Shown one piece after another: positions 1 through 14,161 of a stretch of 14,161 nt of DNA. The stretch's first letter is position 1, and every line of letters starts with the position of its first letter. The DNA is from an uncultured Gammaproteobacteria bacterium. GTDB lineage: Bacteria; Patescibacteriota; Microgenomatia; Daviesbacterales; UBA10151. Below the pieces are notes generated by a model. The model saw only the letters and a list, made by a program, of their open reading frames with translations. It was not told the DNA's origin and made no database searches. The stretch covers positions 1 to 14,161 of the forward strand of contig CAZFVS010000016.1 in the NCBI GenBank assembly GCA_964522265.1. Reading direction: 5' to 3'. Position numbers and translations under genes: made by a program.

Positions 1-46
1 ACTTTTCATATTTATATTGTACCACAAAAAACTTTTCGCGCAATTT

Positions 47-1696: not shown

Positions 1697-3591
1697 TTTT
1701 GAGGATAGTCTTTGAGCAGTTTTTCTAAATTATCTTTTGCTTCCCGATTGGCAGGATTGGTTAAAATAGCTTTCTGAAAATTATTGTAAGCCTGGTCAAA
1801 ATATTTTTGGCTTTGGTAAATTAACCCTAAATTATTATAAATTCCGGCCATACTCTCCTTGATCTCAGTACCGGTCATACCTCCCTTTTCCAGATTAGAT
1901 TTTAACCCCTGATTATAGATTTCAAAAGCTTTGCTCAGACTCTTCTCATTGATATAATGATTACCTAAACCCAGATATGCAGGCATATAATTCGGGTTTA
2001 TACTTATAACTTTTTCAAAGCTTTCTACTGATAAATTATCCTCACCTAAAACCTTGTAAACGTGGGCTAAATTAAATATCGCCTGATAAAAATCAGGACG
2101 CAGTCCGATAGCTTTTTTATAATATAGAACTGCCTTATCAGGCTGGCTTCCAGAGGAATTAAAAGCGCCTATATTATAATATGCTAAAGCGCTTTCGGGA
2201 TAAACTTTGCTGACTGATTGCCACAAACTCATCTGATCTCTCCAATCAAAATTCCGCCGGTAAGTTCTGGCTGAATAAAAAATAACTATTCCTGTAAGCA
2301 GAATCAACCCTATAATCCGTTTCTGCTGGATCAACTTATTTAAAAACCAACTCAAAATCATTACAAACCCGAAAGATGGTATGTACATATACCTTTCCGC
2401 CATAGGAGTAAACTGAGTAATGAAGTTTGAAAACGGCAACAAGGAAACCAAAAACCAACTCAAACCGAATGAAATAACAGGGTTCTTGAAGAACCTGAAA
2501 AAAAGGACCACCAGTGTTAATAAAACTACAGCTGAGGTCAAAATATCCTGATCGAAAAAGTTTTGCCGGGTTAAAATCCCATGGGCGTTTAATGCGGGCG
2601 CAAAAGTTTCAAATCCGGGGGGAATAATATGGTTTAAAGAAAGGTTAACCGGCAAAATTAACAGCAAAAGATACTGCAGGTGTATTTTCAATGTTAAAAG
2701 CTGCATTAAGTAGAAACTACTGAGATCATAGTTAAAATTGGATGAACTCCTGCCTAAAACAGCTATCCTGACAAAAAAGATTACTGCGATAAGAGCCAAA
2801 AAAGGCGCTACCTTTTTGAGCCTGACGAATATCGATATTTTAGACCTGTAAACATAACAGTCATACAGGAACAAAAAAGCCGGGAGGATAACTGCCGGAT
2901 CATAAGTTAAAAATGCCAAACCGGCAAGAAGCAGGGAGGTTTTACGCCTGTTTTTGATGTACAGTAAAAATGACCCAAAAAACAATAAGACTCCGGTCAT
3001 ATCTATACTTGATGTAATGAAGGTAATAGCCTCAGTATGGATCGGATGCAGGCCAAAAAGCAGGGCAGTTAAAAAAGGTGGCAGTGAGTAGTGAGTAGTG
3101 AGTAGTTTGTGCGGGGTGGCAGGAGCGGGTCCTGCACGTAGTGCGGACGGGAGTCTAAATGACTCCCCGGAGGGCCCCCGCCGAGTGCCCGCAGCGACGG
3201 CTTCGAGCGAGGACATCGGGCGGGGGTGGCGACTGACAGGACCCCAAACAAATACTAATTCCCTGGTTATAAAATATATGAGGACAGTTATCCCAAGGTG
3301 GACCAAAATGGAATGAAGATGATAGCCAAAAGGATTTGTGCCAAAAAATTGATGGTATAACACAAATATCATATCCCTTACCGGCCTGTAATCTTTTTTA
3401 GAAACCGGGCCCTCACCTTTAATTATTGCCGGTAAATTTCTAATATCGTTTTTTTCCTGCCAATTGATGATAAAAATAGGATCATCTATAACAAACCTAT
3501 TAGCGAAAATATTTGAATAGGCCAGAAGCGTAAGAAGTATTACTACAACAAGCTGAAACCGAATAGAACGAAATGATTCAAGGATTTTCAT
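1693..3591 (-). CDS. TMTC/PMT-like GT-C fold glycosyltransferase (putative protein O-mannosyl/glycosyl-transferase) with C-terminal TPR repeats; paralog 3 of 3, carrying a GC-rich in-frame insert
   Basis: 632 aa. The N-terminal signal-anchor is followed by FVIDDP, a DD/DE-type first-loop motif of GT-C enzymes. It has LFGLHPIHTEAITFI (a DUF1736/TMTC-like HPxHTE block), about 9-11 hydrophobic helices, PMAERYMYIPSFGF, and then 4-5 TPR-like repeats (YYNIGA..., FNLAHVY..., YLGLGNHY..., YNNLGLIY...). It is collinear with the two upstream paralogs. Confidence 0.75.
   Translation of the reverse strand: MKILESFRSIRFQLVVVILLTLLAYSNIFANRFVIDDPIFIINWQEKNDIRNLPAIIKGEGPVSKKDYRPVRDMIFVLYHQFFGTNPFGYHLHSILVHLGITVLIYFITRELVFVWGPVSRHPRPMSSLEAVAAGTRRGPSGESFRLPSALRAGPAPATPHKLLTTHYSLPPFLTALLFGLHPIHTEAITFITSSIDMTGVLLFFGSFLLYIKNRRKTSLLLAGLAFLTYDPAVILPAFLFLYDCYVYRSKISIFVRLKKVAPFLALIAVIFFVRIAVLGRSSSNFNYDLSSFYLMQLLTLKIHLQYLLLLILPVNLSLNHIIPPGFETFAPALNAHGILTRQNFFDQDILTSAVVLLTLVVLFFRFFKNPVISFGLSWFLVSLLPFSNFITQFTPMAERYMYIPSFGFVMILSWFLNKLIQQKRIIGLILLTGIVIFYSARTYRRNFDWRDQMSLWQSVSKVYPESALAYYNIGAFNSSGSQPDKAVLYYKKAIGLRPDFYQAIFNLAHVYKVLGEDNLSVESFEKVISINPNYMPAYLGLGNHYINEKSLSKAFEIYNQGLKSNLEKGGMTGTEIKESMAGIYNNLGLIYQSQKYFDQAYNNFQKAILTNPANREAKDNLEKLLKDYPQK
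3084..3104. repeat. Tandem heptamer (GTGAGTA)x3 at the edge of the GC-rich insert
   Basis: Three perfect copies at 3084-3090, 3091-3097 and 3098-3104. On the coding strand they encode LLTTHYS. Confidence 0.9.
3109..3243. repeat. GC-rich, stem-rich 135-nt block embedded in frame in the GT-C/TPR gene (candidate inserted structured element)
   Basis: Hand count is 94/130 G+C (72%) for 3111-3240, against 21/60 (35%) for 3251-3310. Stems are GCAGGA 3119-3124 / TCCTGC 3130-3135; GGGAGTC 3149-3155 / GACTCCC 3161-3167 (loop TAAAT); and CCCCCGCC 3175-3182 / GGCGGGGG 3219-3226. GGGGTGGC occurs as a direct repeat near both ends (3113-3120 and 3223-3230). All frames on both strands are open here. The block encodes a Pro/Arg/Gly/Ala/Ser-rich ~45-aa segment that is absent from both paralogs at the aligned position. 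Confidence 0.6.
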
Positions 3592-5317
3592 TTGATAGCT
3601 GTGGATTAATATTTATCAGATCAAGTAATTCCTGTCTAATAATACTATCAGAAGGGTCTAAAACTAAAGCCTTTTTAAAATTTAAAAATGCAAGATCAAA
3701 CTCTTTCCGGTCTTTATAAATAAAACCTAAATTTCTGTACACTATAGACAGATCTTCTTTAGAGCTTATCTTTATTGCCTTTGATAATAACTTTATCGCC
3801 AATTCAGGATTCTCTGCCCTGTAAATATTTGCAAGATTAATATAGGCTGATGCAAAATCCGGGTTAATTTCTATCGCTTTCTTATATTGCTCCTGAGCCT
3901 GATACAAATTCCCTATCTTTTGGTTTGCATAAGCTAAATTATACCTTGCCTGATAAAAATTTGGTTTTAAGCTAATTGCTTTGGCAGTAAAAATTATTGC
4001 AATATCATATTTTTTTTGTTCATTATAGATAGCACCAATACTATAATAACCGAGAGCACTGTTCGGATAAATTTTAACTACTTTCTGCCATAAAGTTTCA
4101 TCATTTTTCCAGTCAAAATTACGCCGGTAAGTCAGCACCAGGTAACAGGCTAACAATCCAATAAGTCCTATCAGACCAACCAGTCTCACGCGCCGTATGA
4201 CTTCCCTAAAAAACAACCCCAAAAACAGCACAAATCCAAATGAGGGGATGTAAAGATATCTTTCTGCCATAGGCGTAAGCTGCGGAGTTAGGTTGGCAAA
4301 AGGCAACAGGCTTAAAAAAAACCAGCCTATGCTAAAAGAGATGATCGGGGTTTTTTTGAAAAATTTTATGGCAATAATAACTAACACTACAACTGATAAA
4401 ATTGATAAAAATACTCCTGATCCAAATATAGATTCTTTAAAAAATAGCCGTAAATCATTGGAAACCGGGGAAAAACTCTCTACCCCATCCGCAATAATAT
4501 GGTTTATGGATAACCACAGCGGTAAAACCATAAGGTATATGTAAAACGCATATATCTTGGACATTAAAAGCTGAGCATGATATAAGCCTTGTAATGAGTA
4601 TTTGCTGAGCACAAAATCATGCTGTAAGAAAATAAACCTGTGTGCTATAAAAATTAACACAGGCACCAGATATCCAATATAATACTTAATGCTGGAAAAA
4701 AATTTGATTTTTTGCTTAAAGCAAAGGCCGTACAACATAATAAGCAGCGGCAATACAACTGCAGCTTCATATATGAGCATCGCCACTATCCCCAAAGACA
4801 AAGAACAGGCATAAAAAACAGGTTTTGACGTTTTTTCGTAAAATAAGTAAAGGTAAAATGAGGCCAGTAAAAAAACTGCACCTGTTGAGTACACCCCGAT
4901 AGTTATAAAAGTTATTGCCTCAGTATGGATGGGGTGCAGGCCAAAAAGCAGAGCTGTGACGAAGGGTAACCAGTGACCACCCCTCAAATGTCTAATTATA
5001 AAATAAATCAACACTGTCGAGGCTAAATGGACCAGAATAGATACAATATGATACCCAAAAGGGTTTACGCCAAAAATTTGATATGCAAGCATGAAAAAGA
5101 GATTACCTATAGGTCTATATCGTGTATTTATACCTGCTGCCTCTTCTCCCGTAAAAATTTTAGGTATATTACGCAAGTCGTTTTTTGTTGTCCATTCAAC
5201 AATAATTTTCGGGTCATCAATCACAAATGCATTTGCGAAGATGTTGGAGTAAGCAAGAAAGGTTAGGATGATAATAATCAGTAATTGGATTTTTGTGGAT
5301 TTGAGCTTTCGGAACAT
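3578..5317 (-). CDS. TMTC/PMT-like GT-C fold glycosyltransferase with C-terminal TPR repeats; paralog 2 of 3 (the 'clean' copy without inserts)
   Basis: 579 aa with FVIDDP, LFGLHPIHTEAITFI, PMAERYLYIPSFGF and a TPR array (YYSIGAIY, YNLAYANQ, YINLANIY, YRNLGFIY). The ATG shares one base with the upstream stop (TAATG), and the stop overlaps the next ATG by 14 nt. Confidence 0.75.
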   Translation of the reverse strand: MFRKLKSTKIQLLIIIILTFLAYSNIFANAFVIDDPKIIVEWTTKNDLRNIPKIFTGEEAAGINTRYRPIGNLFFMLAYQIFGVNPFGYHIVSILVHLASTVLIYFIIRHLRGGHWLPFVTALLFGLHPIHTEAITFITIGVYSTGAVFLLASFYLYLFYEKTSKPVFYACSLSLGIVAMLIYEAAVVLPLLIMLYGLCFKQKIKFFSSIKYYIGYLVPVLIFIAHRFIFLQHDFVLSKYSLQGLYHAQLLMSKIYAFYIYLMVLPLWLSINHIIADGVESFSPVSNDLRLFFKESIFGSGVFLSILSVVVLVIIAIKFFKKTPIISFSIGWFFLSLLPFANLTPQLTPMAERYLYIPSFGFVLFLGLFFREVIRRVRLVGLIGLIGLLACYLVLTYRRNFDWKNDETLWQKVVKIYPNSALGYYSIGAIYNEQKKYDIAIIFTAKAISLKPNFYQARYNLAYANQKIGNLYQAQEQYKKAIEINPDFASAYINLANIYRAENPELAIKLLSKAIKISSKEDLSIVYRNLGFIYKDRKEFDLAFLNFKKALVLDPSDSIIRQELLDLININPQLSNENP

Positions 5318-7401
5318 TAAATTTTAATTGACCCCAAAATAATATCAAACAACCTCATCTGAGGTGAATTTGCAGGGTAGGCCAAAATTTTTATCACCTT
5401 TTCGTCCTGGACCAGGAAAAACTGCAATCTACTCACACCATTATCATCAAAAACCCTGACATAAGCTGTCTGGAAATTAGGGATCCTCGCCAAACCCTGG
5501 TTAACCAACATACCCGCAGGCGATGCTTGTTTGTCCAGAAAATCATTAATCTTCATCTTTGCAGGCTTGGCAGCCTCCTCAAACTCAACAAAAAATTGCC
5601 CATCTTGGTCTTTGATTATAATCTTACCTCCATCCTCAATACTCCAGTAGCTTGGGAAGAAAAACTCAAACCTGTTTTCTTTTTTAAACTTTGCAAAAAC
5701 ATCATTGCCGTAGATCTGGGCGGAATCTGTGGATGCTTTTACCAGGGACAAGTTTTTGAGAGTATTTGAAGCTGCTTTTAAATTCGGATTTAAATTTAGA
5801 GCTGTTTGGTATTCCTCCGCAGCCTTTTCAAGCACCGCTGCCCGCAGGTAAATATTGCCCAAATTCATATGCGCCTGCCAAAAATCAGGTGCTTTGTCCA
5901 GCACTGCCCTGTAATATTTTTCAGCCTCCCCCAGTGCATTAAAATTACCAAACCATATCCCCAGTGTATAATTTGCCAGCAGGTTTCCCGGTGATTTTTT
6001 GACAACATCAGAAAAAAGGCTGATATCGTCTCTCCAAACTATGTTTCTGGCAAAAGTTAATCCTGAGTAAACCACAAGCAGCAAAATAAGCATGAATATC
6101 AGCAGTTGCTGAAAAAACTTTTTGGTAATCCACCCCGGAGACGAAGAAAATATTACACCTCCGAGGTGTGATATAAGCAGCAAAAACCCGAAAGAAGGTA
6201 TATACAAGTACTTCTCAGCCATGGCTCCACCGTGCGGGATGATATAAGAGACAGGCAAAAGAGAGATAAAAAACCATAGAATTGAAAATGATATAATTGG
6301 ATATTTTCTGATGTATTTAACTGCTGCCAAAAGTAACGCTGCTATAACTGCTATGGAAAGCAGGACGTCCGCATCAAAAATAGTCTGGTTTAGGATTGGG
6401 CCAAGTTTGTCATAAGGGGTCATGGATGAGGGAAAATCCCCCACCAGATTATGGATGGCTGTCTGGTTAATTGGGAAAAATAAAAGCCCAATGTAGCGCA
6501 CAAATACCTTGACCATAGTAAGCTGGGTCAGGTAAAAGCTGTACCCAAGATAATCTGTCCTGGAAAGCAGTCCAAGCACACTGAACCTGATAGCCACAAA
6601 AGTTAGAGCTATTGCAAAATAAGGCACAACCTTAAGGTAACTTCTCGCTCTCAGGCGAAGCCTGATCGCTCGAAGAGGAAATCGGAAACAGATCTCATAC
6701 AGCACTATCAGCATAGGCAAAGTCAAAGTCATTTCATAGGTGAAAAAAGCCAGGGCTGCAGAAATAACCGAAGCTCCCAGAATCACACCTCGAAGGTGTA
6801 ATCCCATTTCTTTCACCTTCGAGGTGAATTCCTCTGAGGTGTGCCGCCGGAAAAGCAAATACAGCCAGAAGCTCAGAAAGAAAAATACAGTCCCAAAGCT
6901 TTCCATGCTGGTTGAGATATAATCAATGGTTTCTGTATGGATGGGATGACGGCCAAAAAGCAGGGCTGTGATAAATGGCAAATAGTGACCGGCTCCTAGT
7001 ATCCACCTCGGAGGTGTAACTGCATTTTTTTCACCTCCGAGGTGAGTTGCTTGGGAGATAAGCTGTCTGGTTATAAAATAGACCAAAAGCGTACTGATAA
7101 GGTGGATTAAAATAGCCTGGACCCTGTATCCCAAGGGATTTGAACCCCAAAGCTGGTAATCTACCATATAAAATACTCCTCTAAGCGGCCGGTAGATCTT
7201 GCCTTGTGCAGGCGGTGCAGAACCCTTTAAAATCTCACCCAAATTTTGAAAACTTTGAATCTGGGGCCATTGTTCCAGAAATAAATGGTCATCCCAAAGC
7301 AGCCTATTGGGCAATGAGTTGGCATAAACCAAAAAAGTCAATATCAGAACAACCAAAAGTTGAATTTTTGTATCTTTAAGCGATTTTAATAGATCTGACA
7401 T
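5317..7401 (-). CDS. TMTC/PMT-like GT-C fold glycosyltransferase with TPR repeats plus an extra ~135-aa C-terminal domain of unknown function; paralog 1 of 3, carrying several hairpin-element inserts
   Basis: 694 aa with a LLWDDH loop motif, LFGRHPIHTETIDYI, AMAEKYLYIPSFGF and TPR-like repeats (NYTLGIWF, HMNLGNIY). The tail after the TPRs (STDSAQIYGND...ILGSIKI) has no counterpart in the other two paralogs. Confidence 0.7.
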   Translation of the reverse strand: MSDLLKSLKDTKIQLLVVLILTFLVYANSLPNRLLWDDHLFLEQWPQIQSFQNLGEILKGSAPPAQGKIYRPLRGVFYMVDYQLWGSNPLGYRVQAILIHLISTLLVYFITRQLISQATHLGGEKNAVTPPRWILGAGHYLPFITALLFGRHPIHTETIDYISTSMESFGTVFFFLSFWLYLLFRRHTSEEFTSKVKEMGLHLRGVILGASVISAALAFFTYEMTLTLPMLIVLYEICFRFPLRAIRLRLRARSYLKVVPYFAIALTFVAIRFSVLGLLSRTDYLGYSFYLTQLTMVKVFVRYIGLLFFPINQTAIHNLVGDFPSSMTPYDKLGPILNQTIFDADVLLSIAVIAALLLAAVKYIRKYPIISFSILWFFISLLPVSYIIPHGGAMAEKYLYIPSFGFLLLISHLGGVIFSSSPGWITKKFFQQLLIFMLILLLVVYSGLTFARNIVWRDDISLFSDVVKKSPGNLLANYTLGIWFGNFNALGEAEKYYRAVLDKAPDFWQAHMNLGNIYLRAAVLEKAAEEYQTALNLNPNLKAASNTLKNLSLVKASTDSAQIYGNDVFAKFKKENRFEFFFPSYWSIEDGGKIIIKDQDGQFFVEFEEAAKPAKMKINDFLDKQASPAGMLVNQGLARIPNFQTAYVRVFDDNGVSRLQFFLVQDEKVIKILAYPANSPQMRLFDIILGSIKI
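5352..5366. repeat. Solo palindrome of the CACCTC/GAGGTG family (ACCTCA-TC-TGAGGT, followed by G)
   Basis: ACCTCA at 5352-5357 pairs with TGAGGT at 5360-5365. The 10-mer GAGGTGAATT (5361-5370) is identical to 6821-6830, next to hairpin copy B. Confidence 0.5.
6131..6168. repeat. Hairpin element copy C (inverted orientation, one degenerate arm)
   Basis: The arms are CACCCCGGAGACG (6131-6143, 10/13 to consensus) and CACCTCCGAGGTG (6156-6168). The 12-nt spacer AAGAAAATATTA resembles the reverse complement of the copy A and B spacers (AAAGAAATGGGATTA, AAAAAAATGCAGTTA). It encodes HLGGVIFSSSPGW, which is absent from the paralogs. Confidence 0.55.
6786..6826. repeat. Hairpin element copy B: 13-nt arm, 15-nt spacer, 13-nt arm
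   Basis: CACCTCGAAGGTG (6786-6798), spacer TAATCCCATTTCTTT (6799-6813), CACCTTCGAGGTG (6814-6826). The arms are exact reverse complements, and each arm is also nearly self-palindromic. It sits inside the segment SEEFTSKVKEMGLHLRGV, which is missing from both paralogs. Confidence 0.8.
6829..6841. repeat. Extra degenerate arm (TTCCTCTGAGGTG) abutting hairpin copy B
   Basis: 11/13 match to CACCTCNGAGGTG, with the CCTC-T-GAGG palindrome at 6831-6839. Confidence 0.4.
7004..7044. repeat. Hairpin element copy A: 13-nt arm, 15-nt spacer, 13-nt arm
   Basis: CACCTCGGAGGTG (7004-7016), spacer TAACTGCATTTTTTT (7017-7031), CACCTCCGAGGTG (7032-7044). The arms are exact reverse complements. The architecture, spacer length and TAA...TTT spacer ends match copy B. 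It encodes part of THLGGEKNAVTPPRW, in the same loop that carries the GC-rich insert in paralog 3. Confidence 0.8.
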
Positions 7402-7466
7402 TTGAGATTTAAGATTTGAGATGCTAACTCCGAGTTTATCACAGAAAAAGACCTAAACAGAAGATG

Positions 7467-9788
7467 TCACTTGTGGATGATAATGGACCCTCCGCCAAGC
7501 TCTTGCGGGTTGGCTGAGTCAAGATCATCTGAGACGCCTAAGGCATTATCATAACCAACTTGGCTGTCTTTGGTAATTTTAATCCTGAACTTATCCGGAT
7601 TATCTTTTGTCTCACCATCGGTTGCGGTTAAAAGAAAGTTATAACCTGAAACCTCGTTTACTGAACCTGAGCCTTTATATTGCGCCTTGCTTCCTGCAAC
7701 CACCAGCCACTGATAGGTATCACTGTGGAAGTTAAAACCGGCAACCTTAAATTGGAACTCAGTCTGCCCTGTTGGAACATCTGCCCCTTTTTGGTATTTG
7801 GAGACAAAACCAAAATTGGCAACACCGGCAAGGCCCGGATCAGCAGTATATGCGCCTGCAGGTGAGTTAAGCCATCCTCCGCCTGTGACAAACCCACCAT
7901 CAGGATCATAAACTACTACCATCACACTTTCAGTATCAGCTGCTCCCTGGCTGTCTGTTAAAACAGTATTGATAGTATAAACCCCGGCACCACTGAAGTT
8001 ATGGCTTGCACCGCAAGTCCCGGAGCCGGCTGACTCAACCACGCTGCCCTGGCTGTTGCTGCCATCATCCCAATAAGTAATACATGTGTGGATACCGCTG
8101 TCATTCGGGTCAGTAAAGGAGGCCTGAAGATTGACAGCATTACCCAAAGCATAAAGTTGTCCTCCGGCAGGTGAAGTGATGGCAAGCTCGGGAGGGGAAT
8201 TTGTTTGCAGGGCTAAATTCCAGCTGCTGGCAGTTGAGGTCAATACTGTTATCTGAGCATCCCCGCCGGCAAGAAGCACCCTGGAAGACACACATGGATC
8301 AGGAGATGCCACACCCGGGCTGCCTAAACAAGGCGGAACCGGCACAGTATTTTTTAATATTTGTATGGTATTGACATCAGCCCCGGCTACTACAGTAGAA
8401 TCTAAAACGAACACCAGCTGCAACGGGTTTTCTGCTGTTGCGGCAGGGGCAGTAATATTTACCTGCGAGCCAAGAAAACTATAACCTGAAGGGGGCTGCA
8501 AACTGGGTGTTGTTTCACTGATAGAAACTTCTCCACCGGTGGGGCTGGTGATGGTTGTTTCAACAGGATCAACAGCTGTGGCCCCATCTGACTCTGAATC
8601 AGAGGTTAAACTGCCTCCTGCTGAAACGGTTTGAATAACATTTTCTAAAGTTGAGGTATTAAATCTGGTAACCAGGAAGTTTGGTCTTAAGGTCCCTATG
8701 TCAGTAAAAATACCAACCCCTACCAGCTGACCATCGCTTTGGAAGCTTAAATCCTTAAGTTGTACAGAATCAGCCCCAAAAGGCTGGATGATTTTTCCTG
8801 CTGAACCAAAATTTGTGTCCAAACTGCCATCTGTATTGTACCTGGCCAATCCTAAGTTAAACACTCCGTTAACAGTTGCATCTCCTCCAACCATAATTTT
8901 CCCGTCGGATTGGAGTACTACAGCATTTGCGAAATCATCTTCTGAACGAAAATCAGTAGTTACCTTGCCCCCCGAGCCAAAAGTGGTATCTAAACTGCCG
9001 TCTGTGTTATAACGAGCTAGGGCAAAGTGGTTAATAAATGGCGTCCCGTTGGAAAAGTTTCCACCAACTACAATTTTCCCATCTGATTGGATTCCTACAG
9101 TATTGCCTTCATCATTAAAACCGGTAAAATCAGTGATTACTTTACCCCCGGAGCCAAAAGTGTTATCCAATGTACCGTCTGTGTTATAACGTGCTAAAGC
9201 AAAATCTGCCGAATCGTTAAAGTAATCCACCCTCGTCGTTCCGGCCACTACAATTTTACTGTCTGTTTGTAAGGTTACAGCATGCGCCACTTCAGTAAAA
9301 CCACCAAAATCAGTAGTTACCTTGCCCCCGGAGCCAAAAGTGTTGTCCAGGGTACCGTCTGTGTTATACCTGACAACGGCTAAATTATCATCTGCATTGC
9401 CTACTGCCACTATCCTGCCTGCAGGATCGATCTGTATAGCTATATCATAAAGCATATCGTAAGCCGAGGAAAAATCCGTAATGACTTTGCCTTCAGAACC
9501 AAAAGTAGTATCCAACGTACCGTCTGTGTTGTATCTAGACAGTCCGAAGGCGAATTGGGTGGATGGGGCGGCGCTTACAGAAACAAAACCCGCAGCTATA
9601 ATTTTTCCATCAGTTTGTATAGCAACAGCTATAGCATCATCGCCATTGGGATCAGAGCTAAAACTCGTTGTCACAAAACCGTTTGTCCCAAAGCTTAAAT
9701 CCAAGGTCCCGGGGGCTGCAAATACAGGTTTGGGGATAAAAAGGAGGCTTAAAAATATTACCAAAACAACTGGCAGTTTACTGGGCAT
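7467..9788 (-). CDS. Secreted repeat protein: signal peptide, 6-7 delta-60 repeats (beta-propeller-like), PKD-like domain and a conserved C-terminal beta-rich domain
   Basis: The N-terminus MPSKLPVVLVIFLSLLFIPKPVFA/AP looks like a Sec signal. The unit R(Y/F)NTDG(T/S)LD(T/N)TFGSGGKV recurs at residues 85, 140, 200, 259 and 316 (degenerate at 27 and 375) with a 55-60 aa period, matching the delta-60 repeat (TIGR02608) as I recall it. WDDGS...SHNFSGAGVYTINTVLTDSQG is PKD-like. The tail GGGWL...ANFGFVSKY...FRIKI...GGGSIIIHK resembles a domain often found after PKD or propeller modules. There is no C-terminal sorting tail. Confidence 0.8.
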   Translation of the reverse strand: MPSKLPVVLVIFLSLLFIPKPVFAAPGTLDLSFGTNGFVTTSFSSDPNGDDAIAVAIQTDGKIIAAGFVSVSAAPSTQFAFGLSRYNTDGTLDTTFGSEGKVITDFSSAYDMLYDIAIQIDPAGRIVAVGNADDNLAVVRYNTDGTLDNTFGSGGKVTTDFGGFTEVAHAVTLQTDSKIVVAGTTRVDYFNDSADFALARYNTDGTLDNTFGSGGKVITDFTGFNDEGNTVGIQSDGKIVVGGNFSNGTPFINHFALARYNTDGSLDTTFGSGGKVTTDFRSEDDFANAVVLQSDGKIMVGGDATVNGVFNLGLARYNTDGSLDTNFGSAGKIIQPFGADSVQLKDLSFQSDGQLVGVGIFTDIGTLRPNFLVTRFNTSTLENVIQTVSAGGSLTSDSESDGATAVDPVETTITSPTGGEVSISETTPSLQPPSGYSFLGSQVNITAPAATAENPLQLVFVLDSTVVAGADVNTIQILKNTVPVPPCLGSPGVASPDPCVSSRVLLAGGDAQITVLTSTASSWNLALQTNSPPELAITSPAGGQLYALGNAVNLQASFTDPNDSGIHTCITYWDDGSNSQGSVVESAGSGTCGASHNFSGAGVYTINTVLTDSQGAADTESVMVVVYDPDGGFVTGGGWLNSPAGAYTADPGLAGVANFGFVSKYQKGADVPTGQTEFQFKVAGFNFHSDTYQWLVVAGSKAQYKGSGSVNEVSGYNFLLTATDGETKDNPDKFRIKITKDSQVGYDNALGVSDDLDSANPQELGGGSIIIHK
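8778..9536 (-). repeat. DNA-level tandem repeats (~165-180 nt period) encoding the delta-60 blades
   Basis: Near-identical stretches recur around 8968, 9145 and 9323, for example CCCCCGGAGCCAAAAGTGTT(G/A)TCCA...GTACCGTCTGTGTTATA. Confidence 0.7.
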
Positions 9789-9798
9789 CTACATTATT

Positions 9799-9827
9799 AC
9801 TGTAAGCAACTCTTTGGTTTTTGTCAA
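9799..9827 (-). promoter_or_regulatory. Sigma70-like promoter candidate for the secreted repeat-protein gene, with a near-leaderless transcript
   Basis: The minus strand reads TTGACA (9827-9822), a 17-nt spacer, TACAGT (9804-9799), then 10 nt and the ATG (9788). The -35 is perfect and the -10 matches 4/6 with T1, A2 and T6 kept. There is no SD between the -10 and the ATG. Confidence 0.4.
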
Positions 9828-9839
9828 TACCTCGATTTG

Positions 9840-11735
9840 TTACTCTTCTTCCCCTAATCCATGCGATAATTTAGCCAGGATTCGGGACATCCCGGGATAG
9901 AATTTATCATAATTTAATATCATAAAAACCAGCACCAAAGATATCAAAACAGGTATAACCCTTTCCCAAGCCTGGATCCGGTACTCAAGGCTCAGGTGAA
10001 CCCGGCCGGCTGCAGCCGGTATCACTACAATATTGCCCAAACTATCACCAACCACCCTGCCGCCCGCGCCACCCTCAATTGCCCAACCAGGACTGAAAGA
10101 GATTGCCAAAGAAATTACTTCATCTTTTTTTAAATCAGCATTTATCTCAACCAACCTTGCAAAGTGAGAGCTTGTGAGGCTAAGAGGGGTTTTGAAGGTG
10201 TTGACATATTTTGTCAGTGTATCTTGATCTGCGCCGTTTTTGGGTTTTTTAACCTCAAGTATTGATTTATCAGCTACCCTGGCAATACTTGCCCCACTTA
10301 CCTTATATAGAGTATCCCCCTTCTCCTCCCTGATCTCCCTTATCCCCCCGATCTCCCCAATCCCCCCAAACTTCTCCAAGTGCTTAAAATCCCTGTAAGG
10401 CTCCTGCGACCCTTCCCCATGCACCAAAATCCAACTTGCACCCAGGGCTTTGAGCCAATTCAGCGCCAATTCACTACTTTCCCCTTCCCTGATTTGGAAT
10501 ACTCCATGCGCCCAAAACGGATGGATTGATGCCTGGTCAACTCCACCCCTGACTTGGGCAATATCAAGCTTGCTGTTTATCCAAAAAACGCTCGTGCCGG
10601 AAAGAAACACCCGCTCACTTTTGGGCACATTTTGCAGCATCTCAGTAACCCTTTTTTTGTATTCCCCATTCATCCCACCAACCCATCCTCTTAAAATCAG
10701 CGCCAACAATATTGTCATTCCCGCGAAAGCGGGAATCCAACCGCGAAGCGGGAACTTTAGTTCATTAGAGACAAAGGATGGATCCCGGATCGGTGTCCGG
10801 GATGACATCCACTGACCCAGCAAAATTGCCACCCCAAATTGAATCTCAATAAAAAACCCGATCCAATCCCTCACAAAATCAGGGTCTGATAAAAACCTGA
10901 ATAAAGTTAAAAGTAAAAAGGAAAAAGTAAAAAGAATGCCAAAAAAGAGCAATGGTTGGGGTTTTTTATGCCTCAGCTTAACCACCCAAACCGCTGCCAG
11001 GATAGGAACCAGGTTCAAAAGCAGCTGGAACAGGAATTTTCCCAAATTAACAAGCGGCATCCCTCCAAAGGAAGGGTTTTGCAAAAGAGTGAGCCAAAAC
11101 CCGGGCGTATACCAAACCGTAGCCAGGCTTAAGGCAAGCAATATAATAATGAAGGTTTTAAAAATTTGGTATTCTCCAATCCCCCGTACCACCCCCAAAC
11201 AGATAAACCCTACCACAAGCGGAAGCAGTATCGAAATATCTATAAGAGATAAAAATGCTATCAAAACACAAAGCAATAGGGCAAATTTTGTGTCTTTTTT
11301 TTGTAAAAACTGTAAAAATACCACAAAAACCCAGGGTAAAAACCCCCAGGCAAAATGGTAAAGGCCATTGCTGCCGGATAATAAAAGAAAAAAGTAAAAA
11401 GGCAAGAGTAAAAATAAAAGAGAGACAATAAATGGTAACGAAGTTACGAGAGGTGATGCGGTAGGACCCCGAGCAACATACATTAATCCCCTTACCAGCT
11501 TATACACCCCCATCCCTCCAACCACCCATGAGATAGTAACCAGAATTAAATATTTTTGTAACATTGAAAATTCATTGAAAATTGGTAATTGAAAATTGAA
11601 AATTCCCAGCAAAGCTGGGATCACCGGCCCTATTAAATAATGGAAGGGTACTCCTAAATACCAGTCAGGATACCAGGAAATATCGGGAAAGTTATTTATA
11701 AAAAACTGGGAGAGAGCCAAGACAGTTTGTATCAT
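9840..11735 (-). CDS. Large polytopic membrane protein with an extracytoplasmic C-terminal domain and terminal anchor; possibly a GT-C-like (PTPS-related / YfhO-like) glycosyltransferase
   Basis: 631 aa. The N-terminal ~345 aa are almost entirely hydrophobic helices. SWYPDWYLGVPFHYLIGP near the N-terminus resembles the W-P-x-WY-x-G-x-PF motif I associate with COG5617-type 'PTPS-related' membrane proteins. A ~270-aa soluble region follows, then a final helix VIPVLISLVLVFMILNY. It carries three separate in-frame repeat inserts, listed below. Confidence 0.5.
   Translation of the reverse strand: MIQTVLALSQFFINNFPDISWYPDWYLGVPFHYLIGPVIPALLGIFNFQLPIFNEFSMLQKYLILVTISWVVGGMGVYKLVRGLMYVARGPTASPLVTSLPFIVSLLFLLLPFYFFLLLSGSNGLYHFAWGFLPWVFVVFLQFLQKKDTKFALLLCVLIAFLSLIDISILLPLVVGFICLGVVRGIGEYQIFKTFIIILLALSLATVWYTPGFWLTLLQNPSFGGMPLVNLGKFLFQLLLNLVPILAAVWVVKLRHKKPQPLLFFGILFTFSFLLLTLFRFLSDPDFVRDWIGFFIEIQFGVAILLGQWMSSRTPIRDPSFVSNELKFPLRGWIPAFAGMTILLALILRGWVGGMNGEYKKRVTEMLQNVPKSERVFLSGTSVFWINSKLDIAQVRGGVDQASIHPFWAHGVFQIREGESSELALNWLKALGASWILVHGEGSQEPYRDFKHLEKFGGIGEIGGIREIREEKGDTLYKVSGASIARVADKSILEVKKPKNGADQDTLTKYVNTFKTPLSLTSSHFARLVEINADLKKDEVISLAISFSPGWAIEGGAGGRVVGDSLGNIVVIPAAAGRVHLSLEYRIQAWERVIPVLISLVLVFMILNYDKFYPGMSRILAKLSHGLGEEE
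10332..10367. repeat. 18-nt tandem duplication inside the membrane-protein gene
   Basis: GATCTCCCTTATCCCCCC (10332-10349) and GATCTCCCCAATCCCCCC (10350-10367) are 16/18 identical. They encode the low-complexity GGIGEIGGIREI. Confidence 0.8.
10714..10806. repeat. 93-nt MITE/REP-like palindromic element inserted in frame ('IPAFAGMT' element)
   Basis: The ends are an imperfect terminal inverted repeat: GTCATTCCCG (10714-10723) against CCGGGATGAC (10797-10806). There are two internal 8-bp hairpins: ATTCCCGC-GAAA-GCGGGAAT (10717-10736) and ATCCCGGA-TCGGTG-TCCGGGAT (10782-10803). A partial extra copy CCGC-GAA-GCGG lies at 10741-10751. The element is 31 codons long and encodes SSRTPIRDPSFVSNELKFPLRGWIPAFAGMT. 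The opposite strand reads VIPAKAGIQ. I recognise both peptides as recurrent translations of a widespread bacterial repeat. Confidence 0.65.
11562..11604. repeat. TGAAAAT-rich repeat, coding copy (in frame in the N-terminal part of the membrane-protein gene)
   Basis: CATTGAAAATTCATTGAAAATTG (11562-11584) matches 13298-13320 at 22/23 positions. The 43-nt block encodes GIFNFQLPIFNEFSM. Confidence 0.7.
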
Positions 11736-11762
11736 GTATTACGTAGCATGTATTATGTTTAG

Positions 11763-11777
11763 CATAATACTTAATAC
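11763..11777. repeat. Direct repeat flanking four-helix-bundle cassette 1 (downstream copy)
   Basis: CATAATACTTAATAC, which contains the stop codon of the four-helix-bundle gene. Its partner at 12171-12192 is identical apart from a 7-nt internal duplication. Confidence 0.6.
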
Positions 11778-12166
11778 TTATTTCTAACGCTTTTGACCAG
11801 ACCATTAATGAGCTTGCTAATAATCACTGTTTGTGAAGCTATTTCTTGAAAACGCTGTTTATTGATATATCCTAAATCTCTGGCTATTAAAAGTTGGTTT
11901 TGAACTTCAGTCAAGGACCCTAATGATATATAGTAAAATTGAACCTTTTCTTTATTTGAATTTCTAGAAAAACCTTCTGCTATATTACTGGTAACAGAAA
12001 CTACTGCTCTTCTGAGCTGACTACTAAGATCAAATCTTTCATATACTGGAAATAATTTAGTTTCATTATAAATTACCATAACTAATTTATGTCCTTCTTT
12101 CCACGCATTAAGATCTGTAAAAGATTTAATTGTTTGAGTTTTTTTAAGAGAAATTTGATTTTGCAT
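11771..12166 (-). CDS. Four-helix-bundle protein (TIGR02436 / PF05635, '23S rRNA intervening-sequence protein' family)
   Basis: 131 aa with FTDLNAWKEGHKL, LSSQLRRAVVSVTSNIAEGFSR, FYYISLGSLTEVQNQLLIARDLGYI. This is the classic family pattern F-x-DL-x-W / QLxRAxxSIxxNIAEG / GSxxE. Confidence 0.85.
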   Translation of the reverse strand: MQNQISLKKTQTIKSFTDLNAWKEGHKLVMVIYNETKLFPVYERFDLSSQLRRAVVSVTSNIAEGFSRNSNKEKVQFYYISLGSLTEVQNQLLIARDLGYINKQRFQEIASQTVIISKLINGLVKSVRNKY

Positions 12167-12816
12167 AATACATAATACTTGATACTTAATACAAAAGATA
12201 TAAAACTAGCGCTGATTATAGCAGGTTTTTTAGACCGTTTAGCAAATTTAACATCAAGCAATGGATTTTTCTCCTCCAAAATATACTTGTACGCTATCCA
12301 CCAGTAAACAAACAGCCATAAAATTGACAGCAGGTTGGAAAAATAGTCATGGAAGACAGTCCCTACCCCCCGTCCGGTAAAATAATAGATCATCACGACT
12401 ATCGCGAAACGGAAGATATTAATCAGGTACGTCCCCAACACCCCGACTAAAAACGCCTGGAATTTGCTGAATTTTGTGTAAGCCCCTGATAGACCAGTGA
12501 TTAAGGTGATAAAAAACAAAAGAAATGACTGCCAACCGATACAATTCCATGCTAAATATATCACCTCAAGCTTACCGCTTCTGATAAACTGGACGTATGA
12601 GGGGCCTGCTTCAGTTTGAAGACGAAATAGGTTTAAAACCGCTGCCAAAACCTTCATCTCATACGGCACCACAATATTTTGCAAAACCTTATAGCTGTCA
12701 AAGTGTAAAATTATGCGGGTTAGTACATCCTGGAAAGTGGTAATAAAGGGCAAAAATACCAGTACTGCCACAAGCAGTATAAAAAGGCTGGAAAAAGTCT
12801 CACGCTTTGTGTTCAT
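12082..12816 (-). CDS. Exosortase/archaeosortase-family membrane transpeptidase (PF09721-like); the last ~30-60 codons are probably a non-native read-through tail
   Basis: 244 aa. LNLFRLQTEAGPSYVQFIRSGKLEVIYLAWNCIGWQS fits the exosortase pattern (...G...g..i...g..l.V...CxG..s). The candidate catalytic residues are Cys92 (WNCIGWQS), Arg136 (INIFRF) and His156 (VFHDYF), set within 5-6 hydrophobic helices. The conserved part ends near residue ~180. The tail runs through the cassette flank and overlaps the next gene by 85 nt. Confidence 0.7.
   Translation of the reverse strand: MNTKRETFSSLFILLVAVLVFLPFITTFQDVLTRIILHFDSYKVLQNIVVPYEMKVLAAVLNLFRLQTEAGPSYVQFIRSGKLEVIYLAWNCIGWQSFLLFFITLITGLSGAYTKFSKFQAFLVGVLGTYLINIFRFAIVVMIYYFTGRGVGTVFHDYFSNLLSILWLFVYWWIAYKYILEEKNPLLDVKFAKRSKKPAIISASFISFVLSIKYYVLCKIKFLLKKLKQLNLLQILMRGKKDIN
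12171..12192. repeat. Direct repeat flanking four-helix-bundle cassette 1 (upstream copy)
   Basis: CATAATACTT-GATACTT-AATAC, 5 nt upstream of the cassette ATG (12166). It equals 11763-11777 plus an internal 7-nt duplication. Confidence 0.6.
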
Positions 12817-12824
12817 ACTACTTT

Positions 12825-12837
12825 AATTTTCAATTTT
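12825..12837. repeat. Inverted-repeat arm downstream of four-helix-bundle cassette 2
   Basis: AATTTTCAATTTT is the exact reverse complement of AAAATTGAAAATT at 13314-13326. Confidence 0.6.
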
Positions 12838-12880
12838 TAATTTACAATTTACAATCAATATTTAATGTATCAATTTACAT

Positions 12881-13300
12881 TTAAAATCTTGCTCCTCTTA
12901 ATGAAGATGTAATTTTTTGGAATATTAAAGTCAATTCTTGTGCTTCTTTCCATAATTTATCTATTTCCTCTTTATGCTCAGGGAAACATGTTACAAGCAT
13001 CCTAAGCCAGTGTTTAGTTTCTTGTGCTTCTTTTTTACATATGAAGATTTTATTTTGAAAATCCTTCCTGGAACTTGCTCCGTTTGCTTCCATATAATTC
13101 GCACCTACACTTGTCCCGGACCTAGTAAGCTGGTTAATAAGCGGCACAGAAATCACGTTTTGTTTCAAACCTTTACAAAACTTAATAACAGCCTCACCAA
13201 ATTTAGCTGTCCTCTCTTCCAAGTCATAACTTTTTGATGATTGCTCCATATTGTTCGATTTACTTTGCATTATACTGTTTAGTTTGAAAAATTGTATCAT
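12881..13300 (-). CDS. Four-helix-bundle protein (TIGR02436 / PF05635 family), second divergent subtype; start uncertain
   Basis: Motifs are LEERTAKFGEAVIKF, INQLTRSGTSVGANYMEANGASSRKDF, ICKKEAQETKHWLRML and EAQELTLIF, which is the QLxRSGTSIGAN / SRKDF / KExxET-x-WL subtype. The first ATG (13300) lies inside the flanking repeat. The ATGs at 13270 or 13249 would give a more typical length (129 or 122 aa). Confidence 0.85.
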   Translation of the reverse strand: MIQFFKLNSIMQSKSNNMEQSSKSYDLEERTAKFGEAVIKFCKGLKQNVISVPLINQLTRSGTSVGANYMEANGASSRKDFQNKIFICKKEAQETKHWLRMLVTCFPEHKEEIDKLWKEAQELTLIFQKITSSLRGARF

Positions 13301-13340
13301 TGAAAATTCACTGAAAATTGAAAATTGTTACTTGAAAATT
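13298..13340. repeat. TGAAAAT-rich repeat, intergenic copy between the Kelch-like gene stop and four-helix-bundle cassette 2
   Basis: CATTGAAAATTCACTGAAAATTGAAAATTGTTACTTGAAAATT. The first 23 nt match 11562-11584 at 22/23. It contains the inverted-repeat arm 13314-13326. Confidence 0.7.
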
Positions 13341-14161
13341 ATCTCCTATCCCTCCTCCACCTTTTGAATTTCTCCACTATCTTTGGCAGCAGCAGCCCTA
13401 ATGGCAACAATCCCAGTAAATTCTCAGGGATGGCCAGGGATGATATATCAACTACCAGCCAGGATGAGGCAACTTGGGCATTTTGGATCTCACTGTCATA
13501 CTCACTGTTTGATATCCTGGACTGGTAAAAGGTGGATTGGTCAGTAGTACCAAGTTGTCCTCCGCTGATATACAGGTAAGTGGTAGCACCAAGAGTGGCA
13601 GTAACAGCTGTGTGTTTGTTTAAAACAATGGGCAGTCCATTGGCAGAGTAGGAAAATGCTCCGACATTACCGGTTGATGCAGGGATGGTGAAGCGGTAGA
13701 TAGTCTGCTGGGTGTTGGCCAGGGTACAGGCACCGGCATCTGTACATCCGCCTATGGTATAAACATAAGAGGAGCCATTATGGTTGTAAAATGCTGTGGC
13801 ATGGGACTGCAGAAGTGTTGAAAGTTGAGTTTGGGAAGTGGTGGCAAAAGTGCCTACATCACCCTGGGTGGCACCAACAGTCCCGGTAACAGTGGCCCGG
13901 TAGAGGGTGGAGACAGAGACAGTACTATCGTTTAGTCCTCCCATCAGGTAGATATAGCTGGTTCCGGCAATTGTGGCAAAATTGGCACTCAGATTTTTTA
14001 GTTTTTGGGGAATCTGACCCTGGGAAGTGGTGGCAAAAGCCTGGACAACTGGGTCAGTGTTTAAGGCGCTTTTGTAGACATCTGGAAGAAAGTCTACACC
14101 ATCAGCTCCTCCTAAAAAATAAATATAGGATGAGGAACCAATAGCAGAATAAAGAGCTCCC
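13339..14161 (-). CDS. Kelch-like beta-propeller repeat surface protein (5'-partial, continues past the window end) with a PEP-CTERM-style C-terminal sorting tail
   Basis: I translated upstream of the listed Met (13944) in the same frame and found no stop up to 14160 (GALYSAIGSSSYIYFLGGADG...). The blades recur with the pattern Y-I/V/L-Y-x-x-GG: SYIYFLGG, SYIYLMGG, SYVYTIGG, TYLYISGG. Confidence 0.7.
   Translation of the reverse strand, partial: GALYSAIGSSSYIYFLGGADGVDFLPDVYKSALNTDPVVQAFATTSQGQIPQKLKNLSANFATIAGTSYIYLMGGLNDSTVSVSTLYRATVTGTVGATQGDVGTFATTSQTQLSTLLQSHATAFYNHNGSSYVYTIGGCTDAGACTLANTQQTIYRFTIPASTGNVGAFSYSANGLPIVLNKHTAVTATLGATTYLYISGGQLGTTDQSTFYQSRISNSEYDSEIQNAQVASSWLVVDISSLAIPENLLGLLPLGLLLPKIVEKFKRWRRDRR
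13342..13431 (-). other. Candidate C-terminal sorting signal: IPEN motif, hydrophobic segment, Arg/Lys cluster
   Basis: The last 30 aa are IPEN-LLGLLPLGLLLPKIV-EKFKRWRRDRR-stop. This is the tripartite layout of PEP-CTERM / PGF-CTERM-type signals, and it lies ~520 nt from the exosortase-family gene. Confidence 0.55.

Follow-up and report, generated by a model that had tools for sequence, protein, structure and literature searches.

A candidate dedicated exosortase-type sorting module with a [VIL]PE C-terminal signal in uncultured Microgenomates and Chloroflexota

Does a small membrane enzyme encoded beside a repeat protein with an unusual C-terminal end constitute a protein-sorting system of its own? 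The question is raised by a 14,161-nucleotide stretch of DNA (the window: contig CAZFVS010000016.1, positions 1–14,161, of assembly GCA_964522265.1), which is titled as an uncultured Gammaproteobacteria bacterium and placed by GTDB in the Daviesbacterales (Patescibacteriota, Microgenomatia). An earlier note made from its letters proposed that a 244-residue exosortase/archaeosortase-like protein and a neighbouring Kelch-repeat protein ending in an 'IPEN' signal form a candidate new sorting system. The comparative analysis supports this interpretation, with corrections to the motif, the hydrophobic span and the protein that carries the signal (the cargo). Enzyme and cargo are best read as a dedicated one-enzyme-one-cargo C-terminal sorting module of monoderm uncultured Microgenomates, other members of the candidate phyla radiation (CPR) and Chloroflexota, a reading to which we assign a probability of roughly 0.7.

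Exosortases and archaeosortases occur widely, but little is known of their chemistry, of the acceptor to which exosortase cargos are joined or of the reason for the association with exopolysaccharide loci. The subfamily described here would offer a minimal explicit case, with one enzyme of about 190 residues, one cargo and orthogonal paralogous pairs within a single genome. It was compared across 80 loci around enzyme homologs (handles L001 to L080, flanks of up to 10 kb) from species-representative genomes, among which 272 relatives exist. All long open reading frames (ORFs) of the window lie on the minus strand, and those of the module are listed here.

13339 to beyond 14161, minus strand: 3′ end of the cargo gene (last 273 codons and the stop codon; cut by the window end)
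13342–13431, minus strand: putative C-terminal sorting signal, IPEN - LLGLLPLGLLLPKIV - EKFKRWRRDRR (tail hidden Markov model)
12881–13300, minus strand: four-helix-bundle gene (PF05635 59 bits, TIGR02436 76 bits)
12082–12816, minus strand: exosortase-family enzyme, a membrane protein of 244 residues (TIGR04178 34.1 bits)
11771–12166, minus strand: second four-helix-bundle gene (PF05635 123.9 bits, TIGR02436 119 bits)
9840–11735, minus strand: polytopic membrane protein of 631 residues with a predicted GT-C fold (AlphaFold2 and Foldseek)

The enzyme and the tail signal

The enzyme exceeds the cutoff of the NCBIfam exo_archaeo signature TIGR04178 (34.1 against 23 bits), as do all 30 aligned homologs. 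The three catalytic candidates named in the earlier note, Cys92 (12541–12543), Arg136 (12409–12411) and His156 (12349–12351), occur in the expected order and are invariant in the 30-sequence alignment, where they lie in the motifs WNC[IV]GWQ, N[IV]xR and FHDY, respectively. The named subfamily models of NCBIfam have cutoffs of about 100 bits or more, all of which the enzyme and its homologs miss by a wide margin. The best of them, ArtC (TIGR03762), scores 29.9 bits against a cutoff of 100 in an alignment that runs almost end to end, and is also the top-scoring named subfamily in 18 of the 30 homologs; the 187-position XrtG model (TIGR03110) covers enzyme residues 11–175 with 20.1 bits against 102.75, and the XrtA-type model gave no match to the enzyme or its homologs in these scans. 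On these scores the enzyme belongs to the exosortase/archaeosortase superfamily and falls in none of its named subfamilies. A subfamily profile run against 1.84 billion representative proteins recovered only 573 at E ≤1e-3 (84 at ≤1e-30) and therefore does not merge with the mainstream exosortases; the subfamily is small and well separated. Public records name these enzymes generically as 'exosortase/archaeosortase family protein'; for the window proteins, a cluster look-up by exact sequence returned no names.

In the AlphaFold2 model of the enzyme (predicted local distance difference test score, pLDDT, 85.4), Arg136 and His156 lie in long helices and Cys92 in a short helix (residues 90–93) that starts the next helical segment. 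Because the 92 homologs found are typically 185–210 residues long, the conserved core is taken as residues 1 to about 184 and the last 60 or so residues as a non-conserved extension, which overlaps the next gene (11771–12166) by 85 nt. The idea that this extension is an artefact of cassette insertion was rejected, because L002 and other near homologs carry extensions of similar length with no cassette downstream.

Enzyme paralogs can be arranged in tandem or lie up to about 20 kb apart (L007:2–430 with 1416–2012; L080:1931–2554 with 2538–3107), and several genomes hold two or three modules, for example two each on MGFX01000001 and OY970314.1. In one protein from the profile search (P0185) the enzyme is fused to what was judged by eye to be a methyltransferase-like domain.

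The cargo ORF terminates in SSLAIPENLLGLLPLGLLLPKIVEKFKRWRRDRR, which has the three parts that the earlier note described: a short motif, a hydrophobic stretch that contains Pro and a cluster of basic residues. The closest loci carry nearly identical tails, namely SSLQIPENLLGFLPLGLLLPK in L001 (full end SSLQIPENLLGFLPLGLLLPKLMKKFRRQKD), SLAIPENLLGLLPLGLVLPH in L002 (longer form SLAIPENLLGLLPLGLVLPHLVRKYKEWRRKG) and NLQIPENLLAFLPLGVFIPR in L003 (longer form NLQIPENLLAFLPLGVFIPRLITKLREWRRRR). A hidden Markov model (HMM) built from the tails of 41 related loci with the window left out finds the window tail at 43.6 bits (E 2.7e-12 over 2726 ORFs), and with the whole clade of the window left out it still scores 25.6 bits (E 1.2e-6). 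The tail is thus a real conserved signal, far beyond chance, and tail-bearing proteins that accompany the enzyme are abundant in the relatives of the window, as the proposal of a sorting system had called for.

The tail consensus is [VIL]-P-E-x-x-L-x-L-L-...-P(+11)-[FL]-[LI]-P(+14)-K(+15)-...-K/R cluster. Pro and Glu are fixed in 48–49 of the 49 tails, all of which were anchored on that very motif; PE is present as well in tails found by the HMM only and in those of fusion proteins, with rare DE or SE variants, and these are more independent evidence for the motif than the anchored set. The fourth residue is variable and happens to be Asn in the window, so that 'IPEN' as a signal motif gives way to [VIL]PE, and the signature is [VIL]-P-E-x, a relative of PEP and PEF. 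The hydrophobic span is about 15 residues long across the family, with Pro at +14 in 33 of the 49 tails and Lys the commonest residue at +15 (13/49); the window tail has both. The earlier reservation that a short span with two Pro and one Lys weakens the signal was rejected, because these are consensus features of the tail.

No NCBIfam sorting-domain model captures this tail, in line with the earlier view that it lies outside the named signal classes. When 12 tails were scanned with the CTERM and sorting-signal models at E values up to 10, none reached a cutoff. The window tail does not match the PEP-CTERM model TIGR02595 (cutoff 16 bits), and among the tails of ten relatives two come close, at 15.3 and 14.6 bits; the PEF-CTERM and Firmicu-CTERM models matched none of the tails scanned, and the LPXTG model scored one at 9.1 bits, which is at chance level.

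Scores below cutoff would also be expected if the module were an ordinary member of the PEP-CTERM/XrtA, PEF-CTERM/ArtC or Firmicu-CTERM/XrtG systems that has diverged with its CPR hosts. The nearly end-to-end sub-threshold matches to ArtC and XrtG fit such an origin, as does the [VI]PE common to this tail and PEP-CTERM, and the XrtG system of monoderm bacteria likewise brings together a short exosortase, glycosyltransferases and a dedicated CTERM protein (PMC12854382). The distance of every named subfamily model from its cutoff, the failure of all CTERM models on the 12 tails and the isolation of the subfamily in the profile search nevertheless make this very unlikely, and the fusion of the cargo to a glycosyltransferase (see below) appears in no description found by literature searches. 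Membership in XrtG, ArtC/PEF-CTERM and PEP-CTERM fails, because every subfamily or signal model stays below its cutoff.

Pairing of enzyme and cargo

Adjacency was counted in the 77 loci with enough upstream sequence, taking as the cargo slot a same-strand ORF that ends at most 1.1 kb upstream of the enzyme. A tail-bearing ORF occupies this slot in 50 of the 77 (within 100 nt in 26 of them), and 50 of the 60 tail matches among 2696 ORFs fall there (hypergeometric P 8e-54). The side-by-side arrangement of sortase and substrate that the earlier note saw in the window is thereby a recurrent one. Haft (10.1101/2023.06.07.544157) characterizes dedicated C-terminal sorting systems by a tripartite signal at the extreme C-terminus and by enzyme and target genes that are regularly consecutive; the tail consensus and these 50 loci display the two features.

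When the enzymes are ordered by the unweighted pair-group method with arithmetic mean (UPGMA), the tails sort into classes: class I, which includes the window (LV[VI]xVxxLx[IV]PE[NKR]LL..PL...), class II (..NFEFAT[VL]PE[KN]...PFLP..KKLRR), class III (LSTPxIIVPE..) and a Chloroflexota class (TPxVxVPE...). Enzyme and tail distances are correlated (Mantel r 0.62, reached in none of 5000 permutations), a statistic that is inflated by shared ancestry. Paralogous modules of the same genome differ in tail class and follow the clade of their enzyme (L001/L050, L003/L062, L005/L038/L073, L009/L078 and L004/L020). The two partners are also found in one chain: the subfamily profile search returned fusions in the order ectodomain, VPEN tail and enzyme (P0246 and P0231, both with a family 2 glycosyltransferase domain, and P0230) and in the order enzyme, ectodomain and VV[PSD]E tail (P0208, P0215, P0221, P0229, P0245 and P0278). 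Where the enzyme comes first, Ser or Asp may replace the Pro of the motif (VVSE, VVDE), and the Glu is kept. Such single-chain fusions possibly imply self-processing. The matching of enzyme clade to tail class, the same-genome paralogs and the fusions therefore support a specific pairing of enzyme and cargo.

Class II modules often have a further gene in the slot that separates the two partners. In L038 (9031–10002) it encodes a class-A β-lactamase-like serine hydrolase (PF13354), and the ORFs in L023 and L061 end in similar sequence; elsewhere an unassigned ORF of about 220–330 residues has a conserved C-terminal region (L017:9113–9973, L020, L033, L052 and L055).

In the window the slot between cargo and enzyme holds one of two small cassettes whose genes match PF05635 and TIGR02436, the four-helix bundle of the intervening-sequence (IVS) type known from 23S rRNA. 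The cassette at 12881–13300 is flanked by imperfect inverted repeats of 53 nt (12824–12876 and 13289–13341, 75% complementarity), and that at 11771–12166 by repeats of 32 nt (11726–11757 and 12164–12195, 81% complementarity). In minimum free energy and centroid RNA folds the repeats pair the cassette ends, with whole-fold z-scores of about −0.6 that are insignificant. Both have the look of IVS-type cassettes lodged within an mRNA operon. The slot is empty in most loci, holding a PDDEXK_3 gene in L001 and a four-helix-bundle gene in L002, and four-helix-bundle genes adjoin the enzyme in L003, L004, L059 and L064 too. The cassette at 12881–13300 is probably a variable small insert with no functional part in the sorting system.

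It could be argued that cassettes on either side of the enzyme gene have uncoupled or damaged the module, leaving the pairing in the window defunct; one of them separates the two partners, and the enzyme ORF extends by 85 nt into the gene of the other. Against this, the enzyme core, the catalytic residues and the tail are all intact, small cassette genes stand beside the enzyme in L001, L002 and L003 as well, where both partners are conserved, and no terminator-like site occurs between the genes, though the promoter and terminator scan of 11600–13500 gave counts equal to chance and is uninformative. A defunct module is accordingly considered highly improbable.

Cargo, third gene and proposed mechanism

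The window holds the last 273 residues of the cargo, comprising four Y-x-Y-x-x-G-G blades followed by the sorting tail. These blades are Kelch-like and partly bear out the Kelch-repeat protein of the earlier note; the Pfam assignment of this fragment stays below threshold (Kelch_3 18.2 against 22 bits; Kelch_1 14.6 against 20.1); the L001 ortholog reaches 26.7 bits with Kelch_1 (threshold 20.1) without any individually significant domain. A homolog search with the 273-residue fragment returned only the weakly related, tailless P0093 and was uninformative; cargo orthologs were found through the enzyme loci instead. The fragment is 55% identical over 268 residues to the C-terminus of the L001 protein, which is more than 3172 residues long and carries an N-terminal glycosyltransferase family 2 (GT2) domain (Glyco_trans_2_3 65.3 bits; TED at 59 and QRMRW at 97). 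By orthology with L001 we infer that the cargo gene of the window has a GT2 N-terminus as well. In place of a simple secreted β-propeller, the fragment would then be the C-terminal part of a giant GT2-fused protein.

A GT2 domain with Q(R/Q)xRW is present in every one of the 22 long cargos whose 5′ end is complete. TED accompanies it in most of them, 38 residues upstream of QxxRW in the majority with QRMRW. The top NCBIfam matches of the cargo GT2 domains, all sub-threshold, are the processive synthases PgaC/IcaA, CelA and NodC. In these 22 cargos the domain is flanked by about two transmembrane (TM) helices before and three after it, and is followed by the large ectodomain (400–3000 residues across the cargos) and then the tail. 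The cargo is therefore a processive glycan synthase of the GT2 type that continues into a giant surface domain and is tethered to the membrane at both ends. Some tail-bearing cargos have no GT2 domain (L050 and the enzyme–ectodomain–tail fusions). The tail-bearing and enzyme proteins are currently labelled 'hypothetical', 'glycosyltransferase' or, again, by the generic family name.

Microgenomates cargos start with two transposase-like helix-turn-helix (HTH) domains (HTH_23, HTH_28, HTH_Tnp_1; IS481/IS630-like), which are absent from the Chloroflexota and class III cargos. A glycan synthase that sits in the membrane and bears a giant ectodomain thereby also carries a module for DNA binding on its cytoplasmic side. 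Examples are listed here.

L009:6058–9945: HTH-bearing cargo
L017:2913–9116: HTH-bearing cargo
L010:5059–9981: HTH-bearing cargo

In 28 loci the gene that comes immediately after the enzyme encodes a homolog of the 631-residue protein (9840–11735). In profile searches PF10131 scores 8.2 bits against 26.4 in the window protein and has a precomputed match in 12 of 71 homologs, NCBIfam gave no match to the protein and 15 homologs, and Pfam gave nothing meaningful for ten homologs from the loci. Its AlphaFold2 model (pLDDT 88.3, predicted TM-score 0.88) retrieves the oligosaccharyltransferases (OSTs) STT3, AglB and PglB first in a Foldseek search of the PDB (E down to 2.4e-6, probability 1.0, TM-score 0.40–0.47), followed by AftD and DPY19. 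The protein is predicted from this model to have a GT-C, OST-like fold, and its gene is the conserved third one of the module; because a catalytic motif was not identified, the label 'glycosyltransferase' is drawn from the fold alone.

An in-frame GC-rich palindromic element, TTCCCGCTTTCGCGGGAATGAC, lies at about 10715–10765 within this gene, adjoining the one part of the model in which pLDDT drops under 50 (residues 321–327). It reads GWIPAFAGMT, and VIPAKAGIQ on the other strand, a peptide signature typical of small interspersed repeats.

In the mechanism proposed for the sorting module, the cargo would insert in the membrane such that the ectodomain faces outward, the tail helix crosses the bilayer and the basic cluster lies inside, and the adjacent enzyme would recognize [VIL]PE at the outer membrane face. 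Cys92, helped by Arg136 and His156, would cut off the TM-plus-basic tail via an acyl-enzyme intermediate, by analogy with exosortases and archaeosortases, and a lipid head group or a glycan would serve as the acceptor that takes over the new C-terminus of the cargo. The OST-like protein would probably glycosylate the cargo or build the acceptor, to which the product of the cargo's own GT2 domain could perhaps contribute. Cleavage and transpeptidation, the acceptor and the roles of both glycosyltransferases are all conjectural.

A bolder form of this scheme has the enzyme join the C-terminus of the ectodomain to the polysaccharide made by the GT2 domain of the same chain, or to a glycan built by the GT-C protein, giving a covalent protein–glycan surface fibre in cis. 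This is regarded as unlikely; if it were true, the glycan would be the long-sought acceptor of an exosortase-type transpeptidase.

Several points weigh against the sorting-module reading. The gathering score of the Pfam family Exosortase_EpsH (PF09721) is not reached by the enzyme (10 against 25.7 bits; about 14 of the 92 homologs have a precomputed match). Sequence and Foldseek searches of the PDB with the enzyme found no relative, and there is no solved structure for a member of the family. The adjacent tail-bearing ORF is missing from 27 of the 77 loci, some of which are fragmented contigs, have tandem enzymes or carry a tail 2–3 kb away. The Mantel statistic partly reflects common descent, a cassette separates cargo from enzyme in the window, and the window cargo gene is truncated, its GT2 part being supplied by the ortholog. 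Cleavage and the acceptor are argued by analogy. Finally, removal of the tail would not release the cargo; because the TM helices of the GT2 region would still anchor it, the purpose of cleavage is doubtful.

In the main rival reading, the tail is simply the terminal TM helix of a GT2 synthase that is polytopic, it always stays uncut, PE is conserved as a helix cap or interaction site, and the enzyme is a non-proteolytic partner (scaffold or chaperone) in the synthase complex or acts on another target. A C-terminal TM helix needs little explaining in a protein that is already multi-pass, gene adjacency and fusions fit a stable complex equally well, and the cleavage event is itself conjectural. 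However, the invariance of Cys, Arg and His across the subfamily argues for an active enzyme, and a motif, a short Pro-containing span and a basic cluster at the C-terminus form the canonical cleavable tripartite signal, two of ten tails almost reaching the PEP-CTERM cutoff. The tail is kept, moreover, on the cargos that have no GT2 domain. An uncleaved anchor is accordingly disfavoured and judged quite unlikely.

The known system that a cleaving, dedicated module would most resemble is XrtG/Firmicu-CTERM of Firmicutes, in which a monoderm host encodes a dedicated CTERM gene beside a short exosortase, with glycosyltransferase genes in the operon (PMC12854382). The window module shares the monoderm host, the short-form enzyme, the target next door and the glycosyltransferases. 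It differs in the enzyme and tail scores given above, in having GT2 fused to the cargo (the L009 cargo GT2 scores 24 bits against the TIGR03111 cutoff of 363.95) and in its GT-C, OST-like partner.

With PEP-CTERM/exosortase A (EpsH) it shares the superfamily, the Cys/Arg/His set and a tripartite tail starting [VI]-P-E. That Gram-negative system uses one enzyme for many cargos and needs an outer membrane, whereas the pairing here is one-to-one in monoderms; the present tails lack the second Pro of PEP and stay below the TIGR02595 cutoff. XrtA-type enzymes are roughly 280–500 residues long, whereas the enzyme here is of about 190. For PEP-CTERM/EpsH a link to exopolysaccharide synthesis has long been suspected (PMC1569441).

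To ArtC/PEF-CTERM and ArtA/PGF-CTERM the module is likened by ArtC being the best-scoring subfamily and by the single-membrane setting. The cargos of ArtA are glycosylated, lipid-anchored surface proteins (PMC7157517), and their glycosylation parallels the OST-like neighbour of the window module. The archaeosortase systems differ from it in the ArtC score, in the bacterial hosts, in a [VIL]PEx rather than PGF or PEF motif and in the present module being dedicated, with a cargo fused to GT2. Sortase A/LPXTG systems resemble it in C-terminal motif, TM helix, basic tail, Cys transpeptidase and monoderm bacterial hosts, but neither their enzyme fold nor their motif is related to those of the module, and the LPXTG model scores a single tail at chance level.

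Full-text literature searches found no paper tying exosortases to systems of this kind in CPR/Patescibacteria or Chloroflexota, and no description of a sorting-signal cargo fused to a glycosyltransferase. What appears to be new is that, in uncultured monoderm lineages, an enzyme subfamily and a [VIL]PE signal that have no models of their own are combined with a cargo fused to GT2 and with a partner that is OST-like. The single-chain fusions, the synthase-bearing cargo and the OST-like neighbour would make specificity, cleavage, the acceptor and the link between protein sorting and glycans testable, and the module bears on the unresolved connection between exosortases and glycan synthesis. It also hints at a way in which cells of the CPR (Patescibacteria) and Chloroflexota may assemble surface structures of giant size, and this could be relevant to episymbiotic attachment. 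Curated HMMs for the enzyme subfamily and for the '[VIL]PE-CTERM' tail would improve annotation.

Flanking genes and host lineage

Downstream of the module the window contains the following features.

7467–9788, minus strand: secreted delta-60-repeat/PKD protein
1693–7401, minus strand: three tandem membrane-plus-TPR paralogs (PMT_2 match in one, 3578–5317)
47–1696, minus strand: carbamoyltransferase, NodU/CmcH-type

The three paralogs have an N-terminal membrane part and C-terminal TPRs and are followed by the carbamoyltransferase; a carbamoyltransferase lies near the module in L017 as well. The TPR paralogs and the carbamoyltransferase, together with the NodC/PgaC-like GT2 domain of the cargo, suggest a surface-glycan modification island.

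Within the gene at 1693–3591 an in-frame GC-rich low-complexity insert of about 165 nt (RHPRPMSSLEAVAAGTRRGPSGESFRLPSALRAGPAPATPHKLLTTHYSL) occupies positions 3095–3260 or so and coincides with a local anomaly in GC content and GC skew. Nothing corresponds to it at the equivalent place in the other two paralogs of the tandem array, as judged by eye from the translations.

The nearest relatives of the window are Candidatus Daviesbacteria and other Microgenomates, and the Daviesbacteria locus L001 is syntenic with the whole window at 55–79% protein identity. Typical CPR-like or Chloroflexota-like modules also occur in bins labelled Bathyarchaeota or Gammaproteobacteria (L046, L056 and some 16 loci with the title 'uncultured Gammaproteobacteria'); such names may reflect mistakes in binning or labelling and not the true hosts.

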